A stretch of 64,000 nt of DNA from an uncultured Acidobacteriota bacterium (GTDB taxonomy: Bacteria; Acidobacteriota; Thermoanaerobaculia; Multivoradales; UBA5704): positions 2,880,001-2,944,000 of the forward strand of contig OY969474.1 in the NCBI GenBank assembly GCA_963700145.1. Reading direction: 5' to 3'. Under the pieces are notes generated by a model. That model had not been told where the DNA came from and did not search any database. It saw only the letters and a list, made by a program, of their open reading frames with translations. Each line of letters begins with the position of its first letter. Position 1 is the first letter of the stretch. Below are positions 17,770 to 28,667 of the stretch, piece after piece. A program made the translations under genes and the position numbers.

Positions 17770-18536
17770 AGGAGACCCAGGTAGGCGCCGAGGAGCCGCT
17801 CGCCGGCGAAGAGCGCCACCAGCCCGCCGAGGGCGAGGAAGGTGCCGAACGGGAGCTTGGTCTTGGTGTGGCCGCGGCCGGCGCGGATCAGGACCAGGCC
17901 GGCGACGGCGCCGGCGAGGGAGCCGCAGAAGAGGGTCACCACGACGCCGCGCCAGCCCAGGAAGGCGCCGATCATCGCCAGCATCTTGACGTCGCCGAGC
18001 CCCAGGCCCTCCTCCCCCCGCAGCAGGTACCAGAGACCGTAGAGGGCGAGGAGGAGACCGCCGCCCAAGGCGGCGCCGAAGAGCGCGCCGCGCCAGCCCA
18101 CCCAGTCGATCCAGGGCTGGACGGCGATGCCGGCGGCGATGCCCGGCAGGGTGACGCGGTCGGGCAGGTAGAAGTGCTCGAGGTCGATCATCGCCAGCGC
18201 CACCAGCAGCGCGCAGAAGAGGGCGGCGACGGCGGCCTCCGGCCGCACCCCGAAGCGGGCGACGCAGCCGGCGAAGAGGAGAGCGGTCGTCCCCTCGACG
18301 ATCGGGTAGCGGCGGGAGATCGGGGCGCCGCAGGCGCGGCAGCGGCCGCCGAGCAGCAGCCAGCTCACCACCGGCAGGTTGTCGCGGGCGCGGATCGGCG
18401 CGTCGCAGGCGGGGCAGCGGGAGCGCGGCAGGACGGTCGAGATCCCCCGCGGCAAGCGGTGGATGACGACGTTCAGGTAGCTGCCCACGATGAGGCCGAC
18501 GGCCGCGGCGTAGGCGCCGACGAGCAGTTCGAGCAC
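17766..18536 (-). CDS. pilD: Prepilin peptidase (A24)
   Basis: GSYLNVVIHRLP, SRCPAC, GRCRAC, IDLEHFYLPD, GLGDVKM, LPFGTFLA. Confidence 0.95.
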   Translation of the reverse strand: MLELLVGAYAAAVGLIVGSYLNVVIHRLPRGISTVLPRSRCPACDAPIRARDNLPVVSWLLLGGRCRACGAPISRRYPIVEGTTALLFAGCVARFGVRPEAAVAALFCALLVALAMIDLEHFYLPDRVTLPGIAAGIAVQPWIDWVGWRGALFGAALGGGLLLALYGLWYLLRGEEGLGLGDVKMLAMIGAFLGWRGVVVTLFCGSLAGAVAGLVLIRAGRGHTKTKLPFGTFLALGGLVALFAGERLLGAYLGLL

Positions 18537-18568
18537 GTGGCCGGGATTCTAGACGGCTACGAACAACG

Positions 18569-18600
18569 AGATCCTTCGGCGCTGCGCGCCTCAGGATGAC
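18569..18600. repeat. Half copy of the REP-like GTCATCCTGAG...GAAGGATCT palindromic element
   Basis: AGATCCTTCGGCGCTGCGCGCCTCAGGATGAC is related to the arms of the element at 47564-47672. Confidence 0.65.
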
Positions 18601-18612
18601 CGGCTCCGCCGG

Positions 18613-19131
18613 TCAATTCTTCTTCCCCTCCGGCCAGCGGATCATGTAGCCGTCGGTCCAGACGATGTCCTGGTCGTAGTCGGTGGTCTCGAAGCCGCCG
18701 GGGGTGTAGGTGTCACCGGTCTTCTTCTGGTCGCGGCCGCTGCTGCGGATCGCCATCACTTCCTTGCCCAGCGGGTTGGCGGTGTCGAGGTAGAAGTCGA
18801 AGGGGTGCTTCCAGCCGTCCAGCTGGGGCAGCTCCTGCATGTAGGTCGAGACCAGCTCGGCCTTCAGGTTGGTGGCGCTGATCGACGCGTACTTCGTGAG
18901 GTCCACCTGGTTGGTGGAGGCGCCGGCGGCGGCCGCCGCCGCCTCGTCGGTCAGCCAGGCCATCATCGCCGTGCCGGTCATCTGGACGTTGGCCAAGGTC
19001 CGCTTCTGCCGCGCCCGCTGCAGGGCGTCGATCAGGTTGGGGATGAGGATGGCGGCGATGATGCCGATGATGGCGATGACGATCAGCAACTCGATCAGCG
19101 TGAAGCCACGCTGCTCCGCTTTGCGCCTCAT
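18613..19131 (-). CDS. Type IV pilin / GspG-like pilin, paralog 1
   Basis: QRG/FTLIELLIVIAIIGIIAAILIPN; PQLDGWK; DYDQDIVW. Confidence 0.9.
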   Translation of the reverse strand: MRRKAEQRGFTLIELLIVIAIIGIIAAILIPNLIDALQRARQKRTLANVQMTGTAMMAWLTDEAAAAAAGASTNQVDLTKYASISATNLKAELVSTYMQELPQLDGWKHPFDFYLDTANPLGKEVMAIRSSGRDQKKTGDTYTPGGFETTDYDQDIVWTDGYMIRWPEGKKN

Positions 19132-19157
19132 GCAGGGGACCTCCGTCGCCATGCAAA

Positions 19158-19173
19158 AGCAAGGAGGAAGCCA
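19158..19173 (-). promoter_or_regulatory. Sigma-54 promoter for pilin paralog 1
   Basis: Minus strand TGGCTT-CCTCC-TTGCT (GG-N10-GC), about 27 bp upstream of the ATG. Confidence 0.65.
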
Positions 19174-19225
19174 TAGCCGGCGGCGCATCTGCGCGGCGCC
19201 GCGACGGGCCGTGCGACAGGAATCG

Positions 19226-20635
19226 TCAGCGCGCGCCGGCCGCGGTGACAAAGGCGGTCACCACGGCGCGCGTCCGCGCCACGCCGCGGTCGAGCTCGGT
19301 CAGCGGGATGCGCTCGTCGGGGCCGTGGATGCCGGCGCTGTCGGCGGGCTCCAGCGCGAAGGGGGAGAAGCCGTAGGTGGGCACGCCGCGCTGGCGCAGG
19401 TAGCGCGAGTCGGTGAAGCCGGGAACGAAGGCGGGGACCACCGGCGCCTCGCGGCCGAGGGTGCGCTCGAGCAGGCGGTAGAGGGGGTTGGCGGTCGGCG
19501 ATGGCGGCGAGGGTGGCGCCGTGAGCAGGACGCGGCTCGCCAGGTCGCCGCCGAGCGCCCGCCGAATCCGCGCCAGGTGGCGGTCGGCCGGCGTGTCGGG
19601 GAGGAGGCGGACGTCGACCTGCGCCCGCGCCCGCTGCGGCGTGACGTTGATCCGCTCGCCGGCCGCGAGCACCGTGACCTGGACGGTGTCGAGGAGGAGG
19701 TTGGCCATGCCGGGCGGCAGACCGGACGGCGGCCCGCCGGCCGCGATCGTCCGCTCGGCGCCGAGCATCGCCGCGCGCAGGCGGTCGTTGTGCAGCGGCG
19801 CCAGCGCGTGGAGGTAGCGGCGCGCGGGCGCGGTCACCCGCCACTCGGGCGGCAGCGCGAGGAGGCGCGCCAGCCCCTGGATCAGCCGGTGGGCGGCGCT
19901 CGCCGGGTTGAGCCCCGAGGCATGGCCGCCGCGGCCGCGCGCCTCGACCTCCAGCCAGAGCGGCCGCTTCTGCGCCACCTCGATCCCCCACCAGAGGAGG
20001 CGGCCGTTGAGCTGCTGGTTGCGCCCCCCCTCGCCGAGCGCCGCCGCGACCCCGGCGAAGAGCTCGGGGTGCGCGGCGAGCAGCCAGCCGGTGCCGCGCC
20101 CGCCGCCGCTCTCCTCGTCCGCCACCGCCAGCAGCACGAGGTCGCGCGCCAGCGGCACCCGCCGGCGCTTGAGGTCCACCATCGCCGCGAGGTGGGCGAT
20201 GCCGAGGCTCTTGTCGTCCACCGCGCCGCGTCCCCAGAGGCGCCCGTCGCGCACCAGGCCGGCGAAGGGGGGCACGCTCCAGCCGGGGCCGGGGGGGACG
20301 GTGTCGAGGTGGTGCAGCAGCAGGAGGGCGCCGGGACGCGGGGCCGTCCCGGGAGCGGCGGCTGCGGCGGGGAGCCGGGCGTACAGGCTGGTGCGCCCGC
20401 CGGGGGCGGTGAGCAGGCGCGCCGCGATCCCTTCGCGGCGGAGGAGACCGGCGAGGTAGGCCGCGGCCCGCCCTTCGCGCCCGGGGGGGTTGCTGGTGTC
20501 GAGCCGCAGGTAGCCCTGGAGCCAGCGCGCCGGCTCGGAGAGCTCCGGCGCCGCGGCGGCCGGCGCCGCGCCGAGCGCCAGGAGCGCGGCGGCAAGGGCC
20601 GCCGGCAGACGGGTGCGGGTCACGCGCGCGAGCAT
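19226..20635 (-). CDS. Exported M20/M25/M40 metallopeptidase, paralog 1
   Basis: Signal peptide; HHLDTVP, GRGAVDDK, DEESGG, GEGG, GGHAS, FTDSR, IHGPDER. Confidence 0.9.
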   Translation of the reverse strand: MLARVTRTRLPAALAAALLALGAAPAAAAPELSEPARWLQGYLRLDTSNPPGREGRAAAYLAGLLRREGIAARLLTAPGGRTSLYARLPAAAAAPGTAPRPGALLLLHHLDTVPPGPGWSVPPFAGLVRDGRLWGRGAVDDKSLGIAHLAAMVDLKRRRVPLARDLVLLAVADEESGGGRGTGWLLAAHPELFAGVAAALGEGGRNQQLNGRLLWWGIEVAQKRPLWLEVEARGRGGHASGLNPASAAHRLIQGLARLLALPPEWRVTAPARRYLHALAPLHNDRLRAAMLGAERTIAAGGPPSGLPPGMANLLLDTVQVTVLAAGERINVTPQRARAQVDVRLLPDTPADRHLARIRRALGGDLASRVLLTAPPSPPSPTANPLYRLLERTLGREAPVVPAFVPGFTDSRYLRQRGVPTYGFSPFALEPADSAGIHGPDERIPLTELDRGVARTRAVVTAFVTAAGAR

Positions 20636-20650
20636 GCCGGGGGGCGGCCC

Positions 20651-20685
20651 AAAAGGGAAGGGCGCCGGAGTAAATCCGGCGCCCT
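20651..20685 (-). terminator. Probable intrinsic terminator after pilin paralog 2
   Basis: Hairpin AGGGCGCCGGA-GTAAA-TCCGGCGCCCT followed on the minus strand by TCCCTTTT. Confidence 0.6.
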
Positions 20686-20714
20686 CGTGCTGCCGTGCCG
20701 CGCGTCGGGAGGAC

Positions 20715-21239
20715 TTACGGCTTCTTGCGCCCTTCCGGCCAGCGGACCATGAAGCCGTCCGCCCAGACGATGTCCTGGTCGTAGTCCGTCGGGTTGAAGT
20801 TGGTGACGGTGTAGGTCGCGCCCTCGGCCTTGGTGTTGCGGCCGAAGCTGCGGATCGCCATCACCTTGGGGGCCAGCGGGTTCGCCGTGTTGAGGTAGAA
20901 CTCGTAGTCGAACTTCCAGCCGTCGAGCTGCGGCACTTCCTGCAGGTAGGTCGAGACGAGCTCGGTCTTGAGGTTGGCGTGCGTGATCTTCTTGTAGTCG
21001 GTGATCGTGACCTGACTCGCCGAGCCCGCCGCCGCGGCGCCGACCTGGTCGGTGAGCCAGGAGAACATCGCCGTGCCGGTGTTGCGCACGTCGGCCACCG
21101 TCCGCTTCTGCTTGGCCTTCTGCAGCGCGTCGAGGAAGTTGGGGATGAGCAGGGCCGCGATGATGCCGATGATCGCGACGACGATCAGCAGCTCGATCAG
21201 CGTGAACCCCCGCTGCCGGTTGCGAAGCCTCTTCAGCAT
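20715..21239 (-). CDS. Type IV pilin / GspG-like pilin, paralog 2 (likely major pilin)
   Basis: QRG/FTLIELLIVVAIIGIIAALLIPN; GGAGG RBS; own promoter and terminator. Confidence 0.9.
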   Translation of the reverse strand: MLKRLRNRQRGFTLIELLIVVAIIGIIAALLIPNFLDALQKAKQKRTVADVRNTGTAMFSWLTDQVGAAAAGSASQVTITDYKKITHANLKTELVSTYLQEVPQLDGWKFDYEFYLNTANPLAPKVMAIRSFGRNTKAEGATYTVTNFNPTDYDQDIVWADGFMVRWPEGRKKP

Positions 21240-21290
21240 TTTGAGTCCTCCCTCCGTCCGTGGAATTCGGTCTTTGCGAATCCCTTGGAG

Positions 21291-21306
21291 AGCAGGCTTT
21301 GTGCCA
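21291..21306 (-). promoter_or_regulatory. Sigma-54 promoter for pilin paralog 2
   Basis: Minus strand TGGCAC-AAAGC-CTGCT (GG-N10-GC). Confidence 0.72.
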
Positions 21307-21354
21307 GCGGCGCCGCGCGCGTGGAATCAGCGACTTGCCGGGCGTGCGCGGTTG

Positions 21355-21397
21355 CTGACTGACAAGAATTGACAGATAGCAGAGCGACAAAGTGTCA
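21355..21397. promoter_or_regulatory. Candidate upstream activator (enhancer) sites
   Basis: AT-richer patch with TGACA (21360, 21370), CGACA (21385) and GTGTCA (21392), 50-90 bp upstream of the -24 box. Confidence 0.4.
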
Positions 21398-21422
21398 GCC
21401 GCGGCGGCTGCGGCGCACCGGC

Positions 21423-22847
21423 TCAGCCGACCAGGCGCTCGACGAGCCGGCGGTAGAGCGCCACCCCTTCGACGTAGGCCGGCAGCGAGATCCGCTCGTT
21501 GCCGCCGCCGACGATCAGGGTGTCGGTGACCGGCGTCGGGAAGGGCGAAAAGCCGTAGCTCGGGATGCCGGCGGCGCGGAAGAAGCGGGAGTCGGTGGCA
21601 GTGCGCGGCAGGAAGAGCGGGCCGACGGCGGCGCGCGGATAGGCCGCGCGCACCGTCTCCTCGATCGCGCGCGGCACCGGGTGGTCGAGCGGGCTGCCGT
21701 GTGCCGCCGACCCGTTGTCGTAGAGCTGCACGCGCAGCCCCCAGGTCAGCCAGCGCGGCACCAGCACCTCGCGCGCCGTCGCGACGTCCGAGCCCGGCAG
21801 CAGGTGGAGCTTGAGGAGGAGCTGCCACCCCCCGCCCGGCGCCTCGCGCACCGGGAAGACCACCACTTCGTCGCGCAGCATCGCCTGCAGGAAGTTGGGA
21901 AGGCGGCGGAAGGCGGCGAGGTCGCGCGTCAGCGCCTCCGGCTCGGCGAGGAGGCGGCGCAGCTCGTCGCCGTCGCGGCTCGGGGCGTAGGCGCGGAGGA
22001 GGACCGCCACCTCCGGCGTCAAGCGCAAGTGCTCTTCCGGTTGGCCGCGCGCCCGCAGCTCGCTCGCCAGCTCCTCCAGCGGCTCGCGCGCCGCGGCGCA
22101 GACCCAGAGGTCGAGGAAACGCTTCTGCGCGAGCTCCGTCCCCCAGTACTTGACGTCGCCGGCCTGCCGCACCTCGACCGAGCCGCCTTCGGTGAGCACC
22201 GCCCAGGCGCGGCGCACCAGGTCCGGGTGGCGCGCGATGACCCAGCGGGCGCCGAGCTCGCTGCCGGTCTCCTCGCCGTTGGTGGCGAGGAAGAGCACCG
22301 AGCGGCGGAGCGGGCGGCCGCGTTTCTTGAGCTCCGCCATGGCGAGGAGCTGCGCAACGGTGGTGCTCTTCATGTCGAAGGTGCCGCGGCCGTAGACCCA
22401 GGGCCCCTCGATGTGCGCCGAGAAGGGGGGGAAGAGCCACTCCTCGGAGTAGAACTCCGGCTCGGTGTCGATATGGTTGTGGAGGATGAGCGGGCGAGGG
22501 TCCTGCCCCTCGAGGAGGGCGTAGACGTTGGCGCGGTCGCCGACGAGCTCGAGCGTGGCGGGGATGCCAGCGGTCTGGAGCTGGCGGTGGAGGAAGCGGG
22601 CGCCGGCGACCTGGTCGCCGGTGTCGCTGGTGTTGATCCGCACGTACTCGCGGAGCAGGCGGACCTCGGGGAGCGCGGCGTAGTCCACCCCGCGCCACAG
22701 TCCCGCCGTCCCCAGCGACAGCGGCCGCCGCAGGTAGGCGAACCCCGCCGCGGTGGCGGCGAGCGCCAGCGCCAGGCTGCCGTAGAGCGCGACCCGCGCC
22801 GCCAGCCGCTGGCGCCTCTCGAACGGGGAGTAGCGGCGGCGGCGCAT
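21423..22847 (-). CDS. Membrane-anchored M20/M25/M40 metallopeptidase, paralog 2
   Basis: N-terminal TM; HNHIDT, GRGTFDMK, GEETGS, TEGG, ATDSR. The C-terminal metal-ligand His of HGxDE appears replaced (VGGGNER). Confidence 0.85.
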   Translation of the reverse strand: MRRRRYSPFERRQRLAARVALYGSLALALAATAAGFAYLRRPLSLGTAGLWRGVDYAALPEVRLLREYVRINTSDTGDQVAGARFLHRQLQTAGIPATLELVGDRANVYALLEGQDPRPLILHNHIDTEPEFYSEEWLFPPFSAHIEGPWVYGRGTFDMKSTTVAQLLAMAELKKRGRPLRRSVLFLATNGEETGSELGARWVIARHPDLVRRAWAVLTEGGSVEVRQAGDVKYWGTELAQKRFLDLWVCAAAREPLEELASELRARGQPEEHLRLTPEVAVLLRAYAPSRDGDELRRLLAEPEALTRDLAAFRRLPNFLQAMLRDEVVVFPVREAPGGGWQLLLKLHLLPGSDVATAREVLVPRWLTWGLRVQLYDNGSAAHGSPLDHPVPRAIEETVRAAYPRAAVGPLFLPRTATDSRFFRAAGIPSYGFSPFPTPVTDTLIVGGGNERISLPAYVEGVALYRRLVERLVG

Positions 22848-22922
22848 GCGGCGGCAGATCGTATACCTGCGCCTCGGCGGGGGCAGGCGTCCAAAGGCCC
22901 GGGGCGACGGGGATCAGGCGCC

Positions 22923-23177
22923 GGACAAACGGACTGCGGCCGAGGGCAAACGTACTTTCGCCCAGTACGCGCGTACTTTCCCTGAGGGCAAGCGTACTTT
23001 TCGTCGGTACAAGCGTACTTTCGGTTGGTACAAGCGTACCGGCGCCTGGTACAACGTACTTTCCGTTGGTACAAGCGTACCGGCCGTCGGTACAAGCGTA
23101 CTTTTCCTTGGTACAAGCGTACTTTCGTCTAGTACAAGCGTACTGGCGCCTGGTACAGGCGTACCGCGCCCCGGTAC
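22923..23177. repeat. Tandem array of twelve 21-bp units: conserved GTACAAGCGTAC plus 9 variable nt
   Basis: Units start at 22923, 22944, 22965, 22986, 23007, 23028, 23049 (1-bp deletion), 23069, 23090, 23111, 23132, 23153. Intergenic between divergent genes. Confidence 0.9.
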
Positions 23178-23201
23178 TAGACTCGTCGCCCGGTTCCCCG
23201 C

Positions 23202-24794
23202 ATGACGGCCGAGCGCCCGCGCCTCCTCGTCCTCCTCGCCGCCGCCCTCCTGGCCGGCGCCGGCTACGCCGCGACCGAGTGGTACCTCCTCGGCGGCGAC
23301 GTCGGCTTCCCGCTCGACGACAGCTGGATCCACCTCCAGTTCGCGCGCAACCTGGCCGCCGGCGACGGGCTCTCCTACAACCCGGGCGAGCCGGTGACCG
23401 GCTCGACGGCGCCGCTCTGGACGGCGCTGCTGTCGCTCGTCTTCCTGCTGCCGGGCGGCACGGCTACGGCCATCTGGGGCGCGAAGCTCCTCGGCTGCGC
23501 GCTTTACCTGGCCGGGGTGCACGCCACCTGGCGCCTGGCCCGCGAGCTGGGGCTCTCGCCAGGCCTGGCGCAGCTCGCGGCGGCGCTGGCGCTCGCCACC
23601 AGCTGGCTCGTCTGGTCGGCGCTTTCGGGGATGGAGGTGCCGCTCTTCGTCCTGCTGTCGGTGTGGGGGATGGTGCTCCACATCCGCGAGCGGCAACGGC
23701 CGGAGCGGCCACCGCTCGCCTTCGCCCTCTTCGGCTTGGCGGCGCTGGCGCGGCCGGAAGCGTTTTTGCTTCTCGCCGCGGCGGCGCTCGATCGGCTGCT
23801 CGTCTTCGACCGCGACGCCGGCGGCGCGCTGCGCTGGCGGCGGCCCGACTGGCGCGGGCTCGCGCTCGGGTTGGGGCTCGCGGCCCTCGCCGTCCTCCCC
23901 GTCCTCGCCTTCTACGCCGCCGCCGGCGGCTCCGTCCTGCCGACGACCTTCGCCGCCAAGGGCGCCGAGGTGCGGCGCTGGCTGCCGGACGCGCGCTACG
24001 TCTACCAGGTGCTGGGCATCCTCTTTCGGCCGCAGCCCTGGGCGGTGCTCTTCGCCGGGGCCGGCGTGGCGGCGCTCGTCGAGCGGCTGGGGACGGCGCG
24101 CGACCGCGGCCTGCTGCCGGCGCTCTGGCTCTTCGGCCTGCCCCTCGCCTACTCGACGATGAGCCCCGCCGGCGCGCACTGGATCGCCGGCAACTTCGGC
24201 CGCTACTACTTCCCGCTCTTCCCGGTCGTCGCGGTGCTCGGCGTGCTGGGGCTGGAGCGCGCCGCGGCGGCGCTCGGCCCGCGCGTGGCCGCCGGGCGAT
24301 TCCGTCTGCCGCTGCGCGCGGCGCTCGCGGCGCTCCTCCTCTGGCCGACCGCCGCAGCCCTCGTCGAGGGGTCGCTCTTCTACGCCCGCAACGTCGCAAA
24401 CGTGCAAGGCAGCGACGTGCGCGTCGCCCGCTGGCTCGCCCCGCGCCTGCCGCCCGAAGCGGTGCTCGCCGTCAACGACATCGGCGCGCTCAAGTTCCTC
24501 CTCCCCAACCGGGTGATCGACCTCGCCGGCATCGCCACCCCCGAAGTGCGCCGCCGGATGAACGCCGCCGCCGCCCGCCACGAGCCCTGGGAGCGCGCCG
24601 TCGCCGACTACCTCGCCGAGCGGCGTCCCGACTACCTGGTGATCTTCCCCGACTGGTTCCCCTACCTCTCCCAAGACCCCCGCTTCAAGGCCGTGGCGGG
24701 TGTGCGCGTCGAGGACAACATCACGATGGGAGGGGACGAGGTGGTGGTCTACGCCACGCCGTGGACCCGGAATCCGCTGCGCGGCCCCTCGTGA
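23202..24794 (+). CDS. Multi-TM GT-C-fold glycosyltransferase-like membrane protein
   Basis: PLDDSWIHLQFARNL first-loop DD motif, GSTAPLW, SGME, LARPE, DIGAL, IDLAGI, RPDYLV. Confidence 0.75.
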   Translation: MTAERPRLLVLLAAALLAGAGYAATEWYLLGGDVGFPLDDSWIHLQFARNLAAGDGLSYNPGEPVTGSTAPLWTALLSLVFLLPGGTATAIWGAKLLGCALYLAGVHATWRLARELGLSPGLAQLAAALALATSWLVWSALSGMEVPLFVLLSVWGMVLHIRERQRPERPPLAFALFGLAALARPEAFLLLAAAALDRLLVFDRDAGGALRWRRPDWRGLALGLGLAALAVLPVLAFYAAAGGSVLPTTFAAKGAEVRRWLPDARYVYQVLGILFRPQPWAVLFAGAGVAALVERLGTARDRGLLPALWLFGLPLAYSTMSPAGAHWIAGNFGRYYFPLFPVVAVLGVLGLERAAAALGPRVAAGRFRLPLRAALAALLLWPTAAALVEGSLFYARNVANVQGSDVRVARWLAPRLPPEAVLAVNDIGALKFLLPNRVIDLAGIATPEVRRRMNAAAARHEPWERAVADYLAERRPDYLVIFPDWFPYLSQDPRFKAVAGVRVEDNITMGGDEVVVYATPWTRNPLRGPS

Positions 24795-24850
24795 CAGCAT
24801 GCCTGCCGCCCAGCGATAGGTCGAATCTCTAGAAGGAAAGCGAGGACTAG

Positions 24851-25834
24851 TTGAAGCCATTCCTGGTTGAGACGATCGGCCTAGTACTGCGATTTTTGAA
24901 TCGTCTCAGTCCGTTCGAGTACGTTCTGCGCCGGTTCAGTAACCTCAACAAGGAAAGCACTGGAGCGCTTACCGAAATTTGGGTGCTTTCCCACTTGCTG
25001 ATCGCTTTCCTCTTCCTCGTGTTGCTCCCGAGTTCCTCGCTGTATATACTTCGTTGGGTCGTGATGACATACGCTGGCGTTCGTATGCTTGAGGTCGTCT
25101 CGTTTCAGGCATATACGCAGCTATACGGTGGCTACCGAAACAAGACCCCACGGCTTCACTATCTGCTTCTCAGCTACCGTCGCAGCATCTTCCTTGCAGT
25201 TATTCTTTACCTGGAAATCATCATCTGGTTTGCAATGCTATATCGCCTCAACACTGCCGCCTTCGTCACGAAAGGCATCGCACTCAGCGATCCCCTGAAG
25301 GCCCTCTACTACAGTACCGTCACTATGACCACTATCGGATACGGCGATGTCTATGCTCAGTCCCGCACAGGCTTCTTACTCGTCACGAGCCAGGCGCTCA
25401 TCGCGATATTCATGACGGTGCTGATCTTCGCCCGAATAGTAACCTACATACCCCGCCCCGCGACGGCCGATCCGATCGAGTGCGAGACGCCTTGCCGGGC
25501 CCCCTGTGAGCCTCAGAGGAGAACCACAATGGCAATTCTCGCGATCTCTACCGGTATCGGCATCACCAAGCAGATGTACGAGTCGCTCCGTCCGGAAGTG
25601 AACTGGGAGGGCGAGCCGGCGCCTGGCGGGCTCCTTCACGTCTGCGCATTCGACGACGCCGGAGACCTTCACGTCGCGGACGTTTGGGAGTCCGTCGAGG
25701 CGATGAACGAGTTCGTACACACCCGCCTCGCCCCGGGAATGCAGAAGCTGGGCATCCCGGTCCCGTCGGTCAGTGTCTTCCCGGTCCACAACGTCAACGT
25801 CTATCTGGCGGCGAAGAAGTATCTGCTGACCTAG
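24851..25834 (+). CDS. Potassium-channel (two-TM pore) protein read in frame into a small dimeric alpha-beta barrel protein (internal ATG 25529)
   Basis: ALYYSTVTMTTIGYGD selectivity filter. AGGAGA RBS before the in-frame ATG 25529 (MAILAIS...GGLLHVCAFDD...VADVWES). 5' part is lower GC. Confidence 0.7.
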   Translation: MKPFLVETIGLVLRFLNRLSPFEYVLRRFSNLNKESTGALTEIWVLSHLLIAFLFLVLLPSSSLYILRWVVMTYAGVRMLEVVSFQAYTQLYGGYRNKTPRLHYLLLSYRRSIFLAVILYLEIIIWFAMLYRLNTAAFVTKGIALSDPLKALYYSTVTMTTIGYGDVYAQSRTGFLLVTSQALIAIFMTVLIFARIVTYIPRPATADPIECETPCRAPCEPQRRTTMAILAISTGIGITKQMYESLRPEVNWEGEPAPGGLLHVCAFDDAGDLHVADVWESVEAMNEFVHTRLAPGMQKLGIPVPSVSVFPVHNVNVYLAAKKYLLT

Positions 25835-25903
25835 GGCGGCTTCTTGACGGCAAGTCGCCTCCCCGTCTGTAATGCGGCGCGGTTGGGACAAGGAGGCTCG
25901 AGG

Positions 25904-26611
25904 ATGCGCGCGAGATCCATCACGCTCTTTGCTCTTCTTCTCGCCGGTTGCGTGTCGGCGCCGCCGGGGACTCCGTTGGTGACCCGGAGGGTTGGCGAAT
26001 CTCCTGAGCTCGATGTCGTCACTCAGCGGGCGGTGGGCGAGGTCATCTACGAGACGTTCAACTACGAGGAATGGCACGGTGCTCGGCTCGCGCAGTCCGT
26101 GGTCATCGACGTCTTGGCGGCCAGCGCCCTCCTGGGGCCGAGCGATCCGCTGATCGCGGTCGTCGAGGGAAGTGAGACCGTCTACTGCACCGCCGCGCCC
26201 GCGCTTAGGGTCGCCGGCCGACCGCCTTCGAGCCGGGTCTGTCTGGCGGATCGGGATGGCGACGAGGCATTTGACACCTGGAGAGCGCCCGAAGGGCCTC
26301 CGGCCCGTCTCAAGTGGGCTCCCCTCAAGAGCGCTGCGCCGTTCTCGACCGGCACCTCGATGGAACGGTCCGGGAAGGGCTTCAAGTACGAGCTGCTCTA
26401 CCAGGGGATCGCCGCGGGCGTCGTGAGCCTTCTCTATCGCGAGTACGTCGACGACCTGGTGCGCCCCGCCTTTCAGCAGGACCTCTCCTACACCCTCTCG
26501 CCGCAAGGCCCCACCGAGATCTCGTTTCGCGGCACGCGGATCGTCATCGAAGCGGCGGACAACAAGGGCATCCGCTACCGCGTCCTAACGGGGCTCTTGC
26601 CCCGGCCCTGA
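25904..26611 (+). CDS. Lipoprotein, hypothetical
   Basis: Lipobox LLAG/C; C-terminal FKYELLYQG...YREY...RPAFQQDL; AGGAGG RBS. Confidence 0.75.
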   Translation: MRARSITLFALLLAGCVSAPPGTPLVTRRVGESPELDVVTQRAVGEVIYETFNYEEWHGARLAQSVVIDVLAASALLGPSDPLIAVVEGSETVYCTAAPALRVAGRPPSSRVCLADRDGDEAFDTWRAPEGPPARLKWAPLKSAAPFSTGTSMERSGKGFKYELLYQGIAAGVVSLLYREYVDDLVRPAFQQDLSYTLSPQGPTEISFRGTRIVIEAADNKGIRYRVLTGLLPRP

Positions 26612-26654
26612 AGTCTTGGGTCGTCCGCAGAGCTGTTAGACAGAAGGAGCTTGA

Positions 26655-27419
26655 ATGGATCCAGTATCGTCAGTCTTAGTTGGCCATGCCGCCGGCAAGC
26701 TCTTGGACAGGTTTGGATCCATCTTCCGAACCCATGTCATCGACCGATGGTCACGACGCCGAGCAGAAGAGTTTTTTGCTCAGTTCTGTAAGGAGGTGTC
26801 GCACCAACGTGATGGCGCCACGCCTTACAAACTGGACGAAATTCTAACAAAGATAGTAGAAGATGAGGTTTGTTCAGAGATTCTGTTTGATGCGTATCGA
26901 CGCGTTGCTCTCTCGAGATCAAAAGCACTCGGCCCACGAATCATTGCACTTCTAACGGCGGAGCTCGTAGCTGAGGGGCGCGTTGCAGCCGATCTCGAAG
27001 ATACAATCTTTCTCGCTGCAGAAAATCTCACCGACGATGAGTTGAAAGCCTTCGCAAGGTTCGTTCGTGAGGAGCAAGCGAAGTCCGCCGCTAGCGCCGA
27101 CAAAGGAGAGCGCGGACTGCGAATCAAGTGGTGTGAAGAACAACTCGATTCCAATTGGCCCCGTAAGGACGCCGTTTCTACGGGGCCTCTCGATCTAGAT
27201 GAGTGCCTAGGGAGATGGGCCGGCAAGATGAAGTCTTATGGGATCATTAGGGATGATGTGCAGGAACGCCAGTTCGATTATCAGGAAGACTCAGAGCGAC
27301 ACATTGATGAGCCAGGGACGGTACGCGAGATCAACTGGTGGATTAGCGTTCCGGCGGAGTATTTCAGGCTCGTGGATTTGATCATCCGCGCCGGTGGTGA
27401 CGCAGAGACTACAGCATAA
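26655..27419 (+). CDS. Hypothetical low-GC protein; probable integron-cassette gene
   Basis: 254-aa ORF with AAGGAG RBS, preceded by GTTAGAC; stop codon embedded in an attC-like site. Confidence 0.7.
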   Translation: MDPVSSVLVGHAAGKLLDRFGSIFRTHVIDRWSRRRAEEFFAQFCKEVSHQRDGATPYKLDEILTKIVEDEVCSEILFDAYRRVALSRSKALGPRIIALLTAELVAEGRVAADLEDTIFLAAENLTDDELKAFARFVREEQAKSAASADKGERGLRIKWCEEQLDSNWPRKDAVSTGPLDLDECLGRWAGKMKSYGIIRDDVQERQFDYQEDSERHIDEPGTVREINWWISVPAEYFRLVDLIIRAGGDAETTA

Positions 27420-27474
27420 TCCGGTCCCTGCAGCGGACGGCTGGCGCCGCCGCTGAGGGGCAGAGCCGCTGGCC
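27414..27474 (+). mobile_element. Degenerate attC-like recombination site
   Basis: GCATAAT (R''-like, contains the stop)...CTGCAGCGG-ACGGC-TGGC-GCCG-CCGCTGAG (L''/L' palindrome)...GCTGGCC (degenerate R'); about 61 bp. Confidence 0.5.
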
Positions 27475-27695
27475 GTCGGGAGTTGAGATTCGGTTGATAC
27501 TCTAGGTAGGCAAGTAGAGGGCGACGTGATCAGGGAATGGAGATGGAACGAACAGAGGGCCGGTGCTGACGGCGTGACTCTCTTTGACAACCGCCCGGCG
27601 TGGTGGTCGGCGAATTGGGCCTCAATCCCGGCGGAGATGCCCGAAGAGCTGCGCGCGACCGTCGCGACCGTGCTCGAGCAAAGGAAAATCCTGCC

Positions 27696-27724
27696 TTGAC
27701 CCGCCGGCTCGGTGGTGTCATTCT
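27696..27724 (+). promoter_or_regulatory. Sigma-70-like promoter
   Basis: TTGACC-17 nt-CATTCT with TG just upstream of the -10. Confidence 0.5.
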
Positions 27725-27730
27725 CGACCA

Positions 27731-27890
27731 GCATCGGGCGTCGACCTGCCGCCCAACCCCGCTCGGCCTCCCCCCGCGAGGCCCTCGGCCGGGGCAAAGG
27801 GGTCTCCAAGCCTCGGGTCGTGTGTTTCGATCTTCGGTCACCGGGCGTGCAGGCGGGGGCTGGCGCCGCGTGTGACGGGAGACGAGACAC
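27731..27890 (+). ncRNA. Candidate structured 5' leader / cis-regulatory RNA
   Basis: Long-range pairing of GGCGTCG-A-CCTGC-CGCCC (27737-27754) with GGGCG-T-GCAGG...TGGCGCC (27843-27867); internal hairpin GGCCTC/GAGGCC (27765-27783). Confidence 0.45.
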
Positions 27891-28667
27891 ATGACCGATC
27901 AGAAGAAACTCAAGCGAGTCGTCCGCGCCCGGTCCGCCAAGACCGGCGAGAGCTATACCGCCGCGCGCCGCCAGGTCCTCGCGGCGCGTTCCAAGTCCAG
28001 CACCTCCACCGCCGATCCCGCACCGGCCAAGAAACCGGCCCTGGTCGCCGCGCCGGCGCCTGCTCCGGCGCCGCCGGCGTCGAAGTCGGGCGCGCTGACC
28101 GACAAGTCGGCGCGCGAGAAGACCGGCCACGGTCTCGACCACTGGTTCGCCGTCCTCGACGCCTTCGGCGCCGCCGAGAAGGGCCACACCGGCGCCGCCG
28201 ATCACCTCTACACCGTGCACGGCGTCCCCGGCTGGCACGCCCAGGGGATCACCGTCGCCTACGAGCGGGCGCGCGGCCTACGCCAGGTCAACCAGTCGTG
28301 CACCGGCAAGTTCCAGGTGTCGGTGTCGAAGACGGTGCCCGTGCCGGTGTCGGAGGTCGTCGCGGCGCTCCGCGACAAGCGGCGGCGGGCGGCCTGGACG
28401 AAGGGCACCGATCCGGCGCTCGTCGCCGCGCTCGAGGCCGCGTTCGCGGGTCCCAAGCCGCGCGAGGTCAAGACCAAGGGGAGCGACTACGCCTGGCTCC
28501 GCTACCCCTGGGACGGCGCGACGGTGGTGATCTACATCTACGGCAAGCCGAAGGGCGCGAGCGTAGTGGCGGACAGCAGCAACCTCCCCGAGCCGGAGCT
28601 GGTCGAGGTGCGCCGCGCGCAGTGGAAGGTCGCCCTCAACGGGCTGCTCCGCCACCTGAGCGGCTAA
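27891..28667 (+). CDS. DUF4287-like protein with basic N-terminal helix and SRPBCC-like C-terminus
   Basis: MTDQKKLKRVVRARSAKTGESYTAARRQ; EKTGHGLDHWFAVLD...HGVPGWHAQGITVAYERARGLR. Confidence 0.7.
   Translation: MTDQKKLKRVVRARSAKTGESYTAARRQVLAARSKSSTSTADPAPAKKPALVAAPAPAPAPPASKSGALTDKSAREKTGHGLDHWFAVLDAFGAAEKGHTGAADHLYTVHGVPGWHAQGITVAYERARGLRQVNQSCTGKFQVSVSKTVPVPVSEVVAALRDKRRRAAWTKGTDPALVAALEAAFAGPKPREVKTKGSDYAWLRYPWDGATVVIYIYGKPKGASVVADSSNLPEPELVEVRRAQWKVALNGLLRHLSG

Follow-up and report, generated by a model that had tools for sequence, protein, structure and literature searches.

The locus and its array

The window is a stretch of 64,000 nucleotides (G000:C1:2880001-2944000) from the genome of a soil bacterium of the Thermoanaerobaculia, designated G000, which is assembled as a single contig of 5.46 Mb with 71.5% G+C and is 95.4% complete. 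A 21-bp phased array fills most of a 354-bp spacer that separates two divergent genes (Table 1). The gene on the left encodes an M20-type peptidase and is transcribed away from the array, with its start codon 76 bp from the first, degenerate unit. The peptidase gene and the pilin-like gene downstream of it form a two-gene unit (M20 peptidase and N_methyl pilin-like protein) that is duplicated in tandem on the minus strand (18613-22847). The gene on the right begins 25 bp past the last GTAC of the array and encodes a 530-aa protein with orthologs in the four congeners (78-94% identical) and no match in Pfam even at E ≤ 1. The 'pilin locus' and 'GT-C gene' that a preliminary description had placed on the two sides fared differently: the first label is roughly right, since pilin-like genes are nearby, but the immediate neighbor is the peptidase gene, and the second has no support from Pfam. 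A promoter and terminator scan of positions 22500-23500 gave no sites of either kind.

The cores of the array are of the type G-[T/G]-[A/G]-C-AAGCG-TAC and read, from unit 1 to unit 12, GGACAAACGGAC, GGGCAAACGTAC, GTACGCGCGTAC, GGGCAAGCGTAC, GTACAAGCGTAC (twice), GTACAACGTAC, GTACAAGCGTAC (four times) and GTACAGGCGTAC. Re-reading of the sequence reproduced exactly the 12 units, their cores and the twelve 9-nt spacers of the preliminary description, together with the 1-bp deletion in unit 7, which shortens the core at 23049 to 11 nt and is the sole break in the 21-bp phase. The exact sequence GTACAAGCGTAC is present in six of the 12 cores, and the first four cores and the last are degenerate. 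The earlier view of an array 'degenerate at both ends' needs qualification: the deviating end cores mostly represent a second unit subtype. The core is only a partial palindrome and not a full one, because its inner AAGC is asymmetric. The spacers fall into two degenerate classes, of TTT and CGG type. Tandem-repeat analysis with TRF gave a period of 21 with 10.4 copies, 71% matches and a score of 185 over positions 22947-23164. With up to two mismatches allowed, GTACAAGCGTAC has 14 matches in the window, ten of them within the array, compared with 1.23 expected, and none of 100 shuffles reached 14. A coding repeat was ruled out by the frameshift in unit 7, a G+C content below the coding level and the intergenic position.

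Table 1. Features of the window array, its sister arrays and the associated genes. Positions without a prefix in the first seven rows are those of the window.
Feature	Position	Strand	Remarks
Second peptidase and pilin-like pair, further left	19226-20635 and 18613-19251	-	
Pilin-like gene	20715-21239	-	N_methyl (N-terminal methylation motif); downstream of M20 peptidase gene
M20/M28 peptidase gene	21423-22847	-	Peptidase_M20, E 9.9e-24
21-bp phased array	22923-23177	.	12 units (12-nt core and 9-nt spacer), then terminal GTAC
Unit 7 of the array	23049-23068	.	11-nt core GTACAACGTAC, 1-bp deletion
530-aa protein gene	23202-24794	+	
Low-G+C HD-CE and HATPase_c gene	L007:3445-5403 (G000:C1:3392444-3394402)		about 54% G+C
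CAAGCG array	G000:C1:1826046-1826297		orphan
CAAGCG array	G000:C1:2672028-2672143		orphan, 42-bp period
CAAGCG array	G000:C1:2902923-2903177		orphan, window array
CAAGCG array	G000:C1:2993173-2993560		orphan
CAAGCG array	G000:C1:3395408-3395650		gene-linked
CAAGCG array	G000:C1:3824945-3825040		orphan
CAAGCG-linked small-protein gene	G000:C1:3394947-3395345	-	132 aa, GGAG-type ribosome-binding site
PCD/DCoH-like gene of CAAGCG module	G000:C1:3395698-3396234 (L007:6699-7232)	-	Pterin_4a
Four other module PCD/DCoH-like genes	L074:3084-3398, L079:2972-3598, L083:3041-3448, L084:3183-3638		Pterin_4a
Second GTAC family (L009, L010)	767700-767930 and 1579220-1579480		21-bp units
26-unit array of the GGAAGCTTCC family	1581836-1582375		540 bp

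Phased arrays in the genome and in related species

Across the genome, 42 of the 49 GTAC-N4-GTAC sites fall into seven clusters with spacings that are multiples of 21, and the other seven are solo sites. A genome-wide search for the core at the 21-bp period, read from these clusters and supplemented by one 42-bp array from TRF, identified the window array as one of six CAAGCG-core arrays in G000. The units of this family are of two subtypes, GGTACAAGCGTAC followed by TTTCG or CGG, and GGGGCAAGCGGGAA, which often occupy opposite arms of one array, joined by a palindromic sequence of AAGCGTAC-TTTTNAAAA-GTACGCTT type. Units in both orientations are found within a single array, both at the gene-linked array and at several other sites. 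On sequence comparison, the constant element of the family is CAAGCG and not GTAC, because two congeners have orthologous gene-linked arrays built from GGGGCAAGCGGGAA units, which contain no GTAC. When the 22 CAAGCG-array loci were compared, the only recurrent neighbors were those of synteny groups and spurious read-through ORFs of the arrays.

A second GTAC family (GTACCGCGGTAC...) has two sites in G000, and its 21-bp units contain perfect 18-nt palindromes (CTCGTACCGCGGTACGAG type). G002, the congener without CAAGCG arrays, has this second family in abundance. In G000, the copy at 1579220-1579480 lies 2.4 kb from the 26-unit GGAAGCTTCC array. The low-G+C stretches beside two sister arrays, considered as possible rRNA operons, contain instead an HD-CE/HATPase gene, IS elements and an unknown ORF. 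The HD-CE/HATPase_c gene adjoins an IS5-type transposase gene just downstream of the CAAGCG module and looks like a conflict-system island.

The same step recurs in many other arrays. Among whole-genome TRF rows with at least four copies, period 21 accounts for 113, period 42 for 33 and period 20 for 21, with at most 11 for any other period. Merging of the rows gave 138 loci, with a best lag of 21 in 109 and of 20 in 17; 110 arrays remained after filtering, with a total length of 22.7 kb (0.42% of the genome), a median length of 207 bp and a mean G+C content of 64%. Together with five arrays of 42-bp period, the set of 115 comprises about 45 k-mer families, each with its own, mostly palindromic core (e.g. 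GGAAGCTTCC, GAGATCTATCTC, GGATGTATCC and CCGTTACCGTAACGG), the arms of which are 4-7 nt long and the centers 0-4 nt. By a rough home-made gene call, tandem genes flank 45 of the 110 arrays, convergent genes 28 and divergent genes 25, and a further 12 arrays are inside called ORFs. Since 28 arrays separate convergent genes, promoter control cannot be their general role.

Large core families consist of one or two gene-linked arrays and several orphans. The orphans lie on average 0.79 Mb from the gene-linked array of their own family, compared with 1.13 ± 0.085 Mb after shuffling (0 of 5000 shuffles), a regional clustering that fits local spread and a neighborhood function alike. The cumulative GC-skew curve of G000 gave no usable origin or terminus. 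IS256/Mutator-family transposase genes are situated 100-1740 bp from seven of the 110 arrays (e.g. L005:6613-7905 beside 1826046-1826297), and toxin-antitoxin pairs (HicAB, VapBC, Uma2 and UPF0175) flank many; mobile genes seem to land preferentially in the arrays or their spacers. A narrow literature search on Thermoanaerobaculia tandem repeats and Acidobacteria 21-bp intergenic repeats found no report of such arrays.

The CAAGCG family is present in three of the four congeners (G001-G004). Counts of CAAGCG-N15-CAAGCG against a reversed-pattern control are 19 and 6 in G000, 33 and 2 in G001, 30 and 1 in G003 and 40 and 3 in G004; G002, with 5 and 7, has no CAAGCG arrays. The family as such was not found in 36 further genomes of the taxonomic family and order, except that one of the two genomes examined from another genus contains a variant of it. 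CAAGCG arrays occupy syntenic sites in several species, and orthologous arrays of different species have inherited spacers in common. The array at 2.99 Mb, which lies between convergent genes, is preserved almost unit by unit in four species, and the differences consist of whole units. Between G000 and G004, its cores are 95.6% identical (n = 228 positions) and its spacers 82.9% identical (n = 170), compared with 82-96% at four-fold sites in five flanking genes. The spacers therefore drift at about the silent rate, with the cores being held.

The window locus differs between species. In G004, the orthologous CAAGCG array is longer and includes an inverted arm missing from G000. At the same site, G001 contains a different 21-bp family (of the CCGTTACCGTAACGG type), G003 another different 21-bp family and an extra small ORF, and G002 a short spacer with no array. 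Contigs from four metagenome runs, which show only the variants of relatives (no piece spans the whole stretch, and coverage gaps are uninformative), display one extra 21-bp unit, the G that is deleted from unit 7, and larger replacements; the variation in unit number that the preliminary description had proposed to look for is thereby observed among relatives as a difference of one whole unit. On these comparisons, the array is conserved in its sequence logic and is dispensable and replaceable at a given site.

A small-protein family beside the arrays

ORFs within 2.5 kb of all arrays were clustered in a search for partner genes. The largest cluster consists of small proteins at 11 arrays of different core families, one of them being a spurious read-through ORF; paralogs of one gene thus recur beside arrays with different cores, in answer to the earlier question of co-occurring genes. 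The member linked to the CAAGCG family is a 132-aa protein. Its gene is 492 kb from the window array, and the gene-linked CAAGCG array is located 62 bp upstream of it, between this gene and a PCD/DCoH-like gene. With the 132-aa protein as query, 15 paralogs were found in G000, 5 in G001, 21 in G002, 12 in G003 and 20 in G004. None of the 15 matches in G000 falls in the window, where there is neither a family gene nor a remnant of one.

A TRF array of 20 or 21 bp lies within 39-161 bp of 13 of the 15 G000 paralogs, upstream every time. Autocorrelation also revealed an upstream 21-bp array at the 14th paralog, where it is clear (0.66), and at the 15th, where it is weak (0.53). For family members from five genomes, the best upstream period is 20 or 21 at an autocorrelation of at least 0.5 in 20 of 22 cases, compared with 15 of 400 random genes. 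Each major core family has one array directly upstream of a small-protein paralog, and the cores are private in that orthologs share a core and paralogs differ. The linkage of gene and array is in this way established, as are the array itself, its family and its pattern of conservation. Protein identity is correlated with array-profile similarity (rho 0.49, reached in 0 of 2000 label permutations; rho 0.27 for pairs below 65% identity). Kin paralogs share both gene and array, and shared descent of a duplicated gene-and-array module, rather than recognition, could explain this correlation.

The syntenic site in G003 and G004 encodes orthologs of the 132-aa protein (85-86% identity), each gene again preceded by the PCD-like gene and by an array made up of GGGGCAAGCGGGAA units. 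G002, the congener without CAAGCG arrays, encodes nothing closer than a match of 52% identity. In G001 (81% complete and fragmented), a contig end truncates a family gene beside a CAAGCG array; its product is only 55% identical to the 132-aa protein over the 64 residues available, which counts against reading the small protein as the binder. More widely, 22 of 24 genomes from the taxonomic family encode members, with 4-45 copies each, and none of 16 genomes from 11 other families of the order does. At E ≤ 0.001, a profile built from 22 members matched 1127 cluster representatives (50% identity level), with lengths almost always in the range of 105-160 aa.

The G000 paralogs are 122-145 residues long and consist of an acidic helical hairpin followed by a basic tail. 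In the 132-aa protein, residues 1-56 are acidic (pI 4-5), residues 57-112 include 17 Lys/Arg among 56 (pI about 11.6) and the last 20 residues are rich in Pro and Thr. The AlphaFold2 model (mean pLDDT 85) contains helices at residues 6-22, 31-88 and 93-98, a disordered tail and no strand. Three arginines on the basic part of the long helix (Arg60, Arg66 and Arg72) show little or no variation in the family. Searches of Pfam, NCBIfam and PHROG gave no family match at a meaningful level and named no DNA-binding domain, and a protein atlas returned only 'hypothetical protein' clusters, mostly from Acidobacteriota. A Foldseek search of the model against the PDB gave no match at E ≤ 0.001, and the best hits of a VIA fold search (Z of 6.8 at most) were generic helical hairpins and bundles, below the level that is meaningful for helical models with this tool. 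Fused or longer homologs were absent at E ≤ 1e-5, which is weak evidence; five longer family representatives contained no Pfam domain, and the two that were inspected look like start-codon overcalls. As modeled, the small protein fits a nucleic-acid-binding coiled-coil protein.

Sixteen modules of gene and array were examined, and the small protein is the only component present in all of them. PCD/DCoH-like genes are found in five of the 16 and Xre-type HTH genes in four (Pfam), with two more identified by BLAST clustering; the CAAGCG module has no HTH gene among the neighbors scanned. The genome encodes six Pterin_4a copies. The five non-canonical ones all flank a module on its array side, one of them in the CAAGCG module, and the sixth, high-scoring copy is located elsewhere. 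Canonical PCDs carry a His-His-Pro catalytic motif, which is conserved in none of the five module copies. In eukaryotes, DCoH is paired with HNF1 as a cofactor, and by analogy the five module proteins may be non-enzymatic cofactors. A Pfam scan of 51 neighbors of the 16 modules identified no ParA-, actin- or tubulin-like family.

Candidate function and comparison with known systems

The 'phased protein-loading array' of the preliminary description is favored by the dispersed array family, the conservation of the cores, the linkage of gene and array, the private cores of the paralogs, the co-occurrence of orthologs and CAAGCG arrays among the congeners, the arginines and basic half of the protein and the regional clustering; from these we infer protein binding, the identity of the binder and the effect of its occupancy. 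To the reading of the window array as an orphan docking array for the 132-aa CAAGCG-linked protein, we assign about an even chance. The array would act as double-stranded DNA, a multi-site docking track. The protein, probably a dimer or higher oligomer, would recognize the CAAGCG-centered core and line up on one face of the helix at a step of two turns (21 bp), starting from the best-kept central units. It would regulate its own gene at the gene-linked array and also occupy the orphan arrays. At the window locus, occupancy would cover nearly all of the 354-bp divergent promoter region between the peptidase/pilin-like operon and the 530-aa gene. That the window array is dispensable at its own locus, with none in G002 and a different family in G001 and G003, counts against this docking reading.

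A broader proposal, which we regard as possible but put forward only tentatively, is an 'addressed' DNA-coating system in Thermoanaerobaculia of this taxonomic family, with 4-45 paralogous small basic coiled-coil proteins per genome, each of which would recognize a private core in arrays phased at two helical turns. At one of these arrays the protein would regulate its own gene, in many cases together with a non-enzymatic DCoH-like cofactor, and the others would mark the surrounding chromosomal neighborhood. The window array would then be an address label, with silencing or insulation of the divergent genes, or tethering of the locus to the sister arrays, as its possible effects.

The most serious alternative is that the window array is a selfish or neutral dispersed minisatellite, which seeds itself, grows and shrinks by 21-bp slippage and decays without a role, with the small genes merely traveling along. 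The replacement or loss of the array in G001, G002 and G003, the whole-unit difference and larger replacements on the metagenome contigs, the mixture of tandem, convergent and divergent contexts, the toxin-antitoxin genes and IS elements that flank many arrays (IS256-type genes within about 1.8 kb of seven) and the regional clustering that local spread would give are all consistent with this. We nevertheless consider it unlikely, as the cores are kept while the spacers drift, one orthologous array has been retained unit by unit across four species, strict phase is maintained over more than ten diverged units and no Y1/RAYT transposase is encoded in the genome; nor would slippage alone be sufficient to produce about 45 different cores with the same 20/21-bp step.

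A docking track could also have another binder, such as the PCD/DCoH-like protein, the Xre-type HTH protein or a host nucleoid protein, with the small protein being a cofactor, a cargo or merely the product of a regulated gene. The confinement of the non-canonical Pterin_4a copies to the array side of modules, the Xre-type genes of some modules and the lack of a recognized DNA-binding domain in the small protein point in this direction, and the PCD/DCoH-like or Xre-type HTH protein could be a cofactor or the true specificity factor. Against this stand the finding that no component other than the small protein recurs in all 16 modules and the lack of an HTH gene among the scanned neighbors of the CAAGCG module, and we rate a different binder as rather improbable.

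A role as RNA, with the array transcribed into a TIGR- or CRISPR-like guide, decoy or structured RNA array, is very improbable. The alternation of 12 conserved and 9 less conserved nucleotides superficially resembles dual-spacer TIGR units, and the plus strand folds slightly better than shuffled sequences (z of -2.0, with six of 200 shuffles as good), but the minus strand does not stand out (z of -0.5), units occur in both orientations inside one array, the spacers belong to two classes and have been inherited across species, and cores with arms of 4-7 nt and centers of 0-4 nt cannot form stable hairpins. No Rfam match was found over 22923-23177 at E ≤ 1 (18000-28000 was scanned, with one chance-level match elsewhere), and six other array loci gave just a tRNA at the gathering threshold. 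TIGR-Tas arrays have short conserved segments that alternate with less conserved ones of about 9 nt, as in the window array. The TIGR-like reading fails on the defining features of the system (bioRxiv 10.64898/2026.09.09.750476), for which a Tas protein with a Nop domain should be encoded at or near the array: PF01798 (Nop domain) has no match in the whole genome, while the same search was positive in four of 14 control genomes; the box C sequence TGATGA is absent from 22923-23177; and the spacers form two degenerate classes shared between orthologous arrays, rather than being hypervariable.

A LexA-type SOS operator array or a GTAC methylation-sensitive switch, suggested by a resemblance of GTAC-N4-GTAC to some LexA boxes, by a moderate under-representation of GTAC in the genome (observed/expected 0.64) and by one CAAGCG array 2.1 kb downstream of a DnaE2-like polymerase gene, is hardly credible: a LexA box is expected upstream of lexA itself and of core SOS genes, and neither of the two lexA homologs (LexA_DNA_bind genes) has GTAC-N4-GTAC or a related scanned pattern within about 400 bp upstream, none of the mere seven solo sites in the genome is near either homolog, GTAC, unlike CAAGCG, is missing from the gene-linked arrays of G003 and G004, which makes the switch unlikely as a general mechanism, and the GTAC deficit is not distinctive because CTAG is rarer still (0.34). 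As a separate observation, five motifs of roughly 17 nt, of the CGTCACCGTTTCATCGG type, are spread over about 250 bp upstream of a lexA-like gene (4494423-4494605, L039); these are probably the second LexA_DNA_bind repressor's own operator set and unrelated to the GTAC arrays.

If the small proteins bind the arrays, they would constitute a large, lineage-specific family of sequence-specific DNA-binding proteins without a recognized DNA-binding domain. Each paralog would adjoin its own site, so that the genomes would hold a built-in map of protein-to-DNA specificity from which a recognition code could be tested directly. The recurrent PCD/DCoH-like partner, apparently without catalytic function, would parallel in bacteria the eukaryotic pairing of DCoH with HNF1. 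The question bears on how bacteria without classical systems might mark or organize chromosomal neighborhoods. Even if inert, the arrays would be an unusually rigid class of bacterial satellite DNA, with a constant 21-bp step that needs explanation.

Several known systems share parts of this arrangement. REP/BIME elements with their RAYT transposases and MIRU- or BOX-type repeats are dispersed, intergenic, partly palindromic and clustered, with several families per genome, and the arrays described here resemble them in each of these respects. A REP/BIME-RAYT origin was rejected, as PF01797 (Y1) has no match in the genome and the same search was positive in six of 14 control genomes; the strict two-helical-turn phase and the tie of each family to a private small-protein gene are further differences. 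The iterons and titration arrays P1 incA and F sopC and the MatP-matS system are repeated binding sites that act by number and position, and the matS sites of one small protein are regionally clustered. Repeated sites and regional clustering are features in common, but those systems have single palindromes or iterons with one specificity per replicon, unlike the 4-45 paralogs with private, strictly phased arrays found here. Phased repeats directly upstream of the candidate binder gene, a feature of iterons and centromeres, are present in the family and not at the window copy.

Units of the omega repressor occur in direct and inverted orientation, and here too the units of one family are found in both orientations, at a gene-linked array and at other sites. 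In the omega/parS system of pSM19035, as described in PMC5016525, several short-unit arrays per replicon serve one small protein and overlap promoters including its own, and affinity depends on the number of units. That system, which functions in type Ib plasmid partition and copy control, has contiguous 7-bp units, a ribbon-helix-helix binder and a ParA-type partner, whereas the present arrays have a 21-bp step and about 110 chromosomal copies, the candidate binder is modeled as a wholly helical hairpin that ends in a basic tail, and no ParA/ParM-type gene is found among the module neighbors scanned. In ParR-parC (R1 and pSK41) and TubR-tubC, the same source (PMC5016525) places tandem direct repeats upstream of the binder operon, with one dimer per iteron; the resulting nucleoprotein filament is helical and represses the promoter as well. 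Each replicon has just one such locus, with a ParM or TubZ motor and an RHH or winged-helix binder. The arrays described here are at many loci, no such motor gene was found among the scanned neighbors and neither fold was recognized in the model of the candidate binder. The omega/parS and ParR/parC arrays provide the closest known logic; the present system differs from them in the modeled fold of the candidate binder, in lacking a motor partner among the scanned neighbors, in being spread over the chromosome and in having many paralogs, each with its private core, and the gene-plus-array system is best read as lineage-specific and undescribed.
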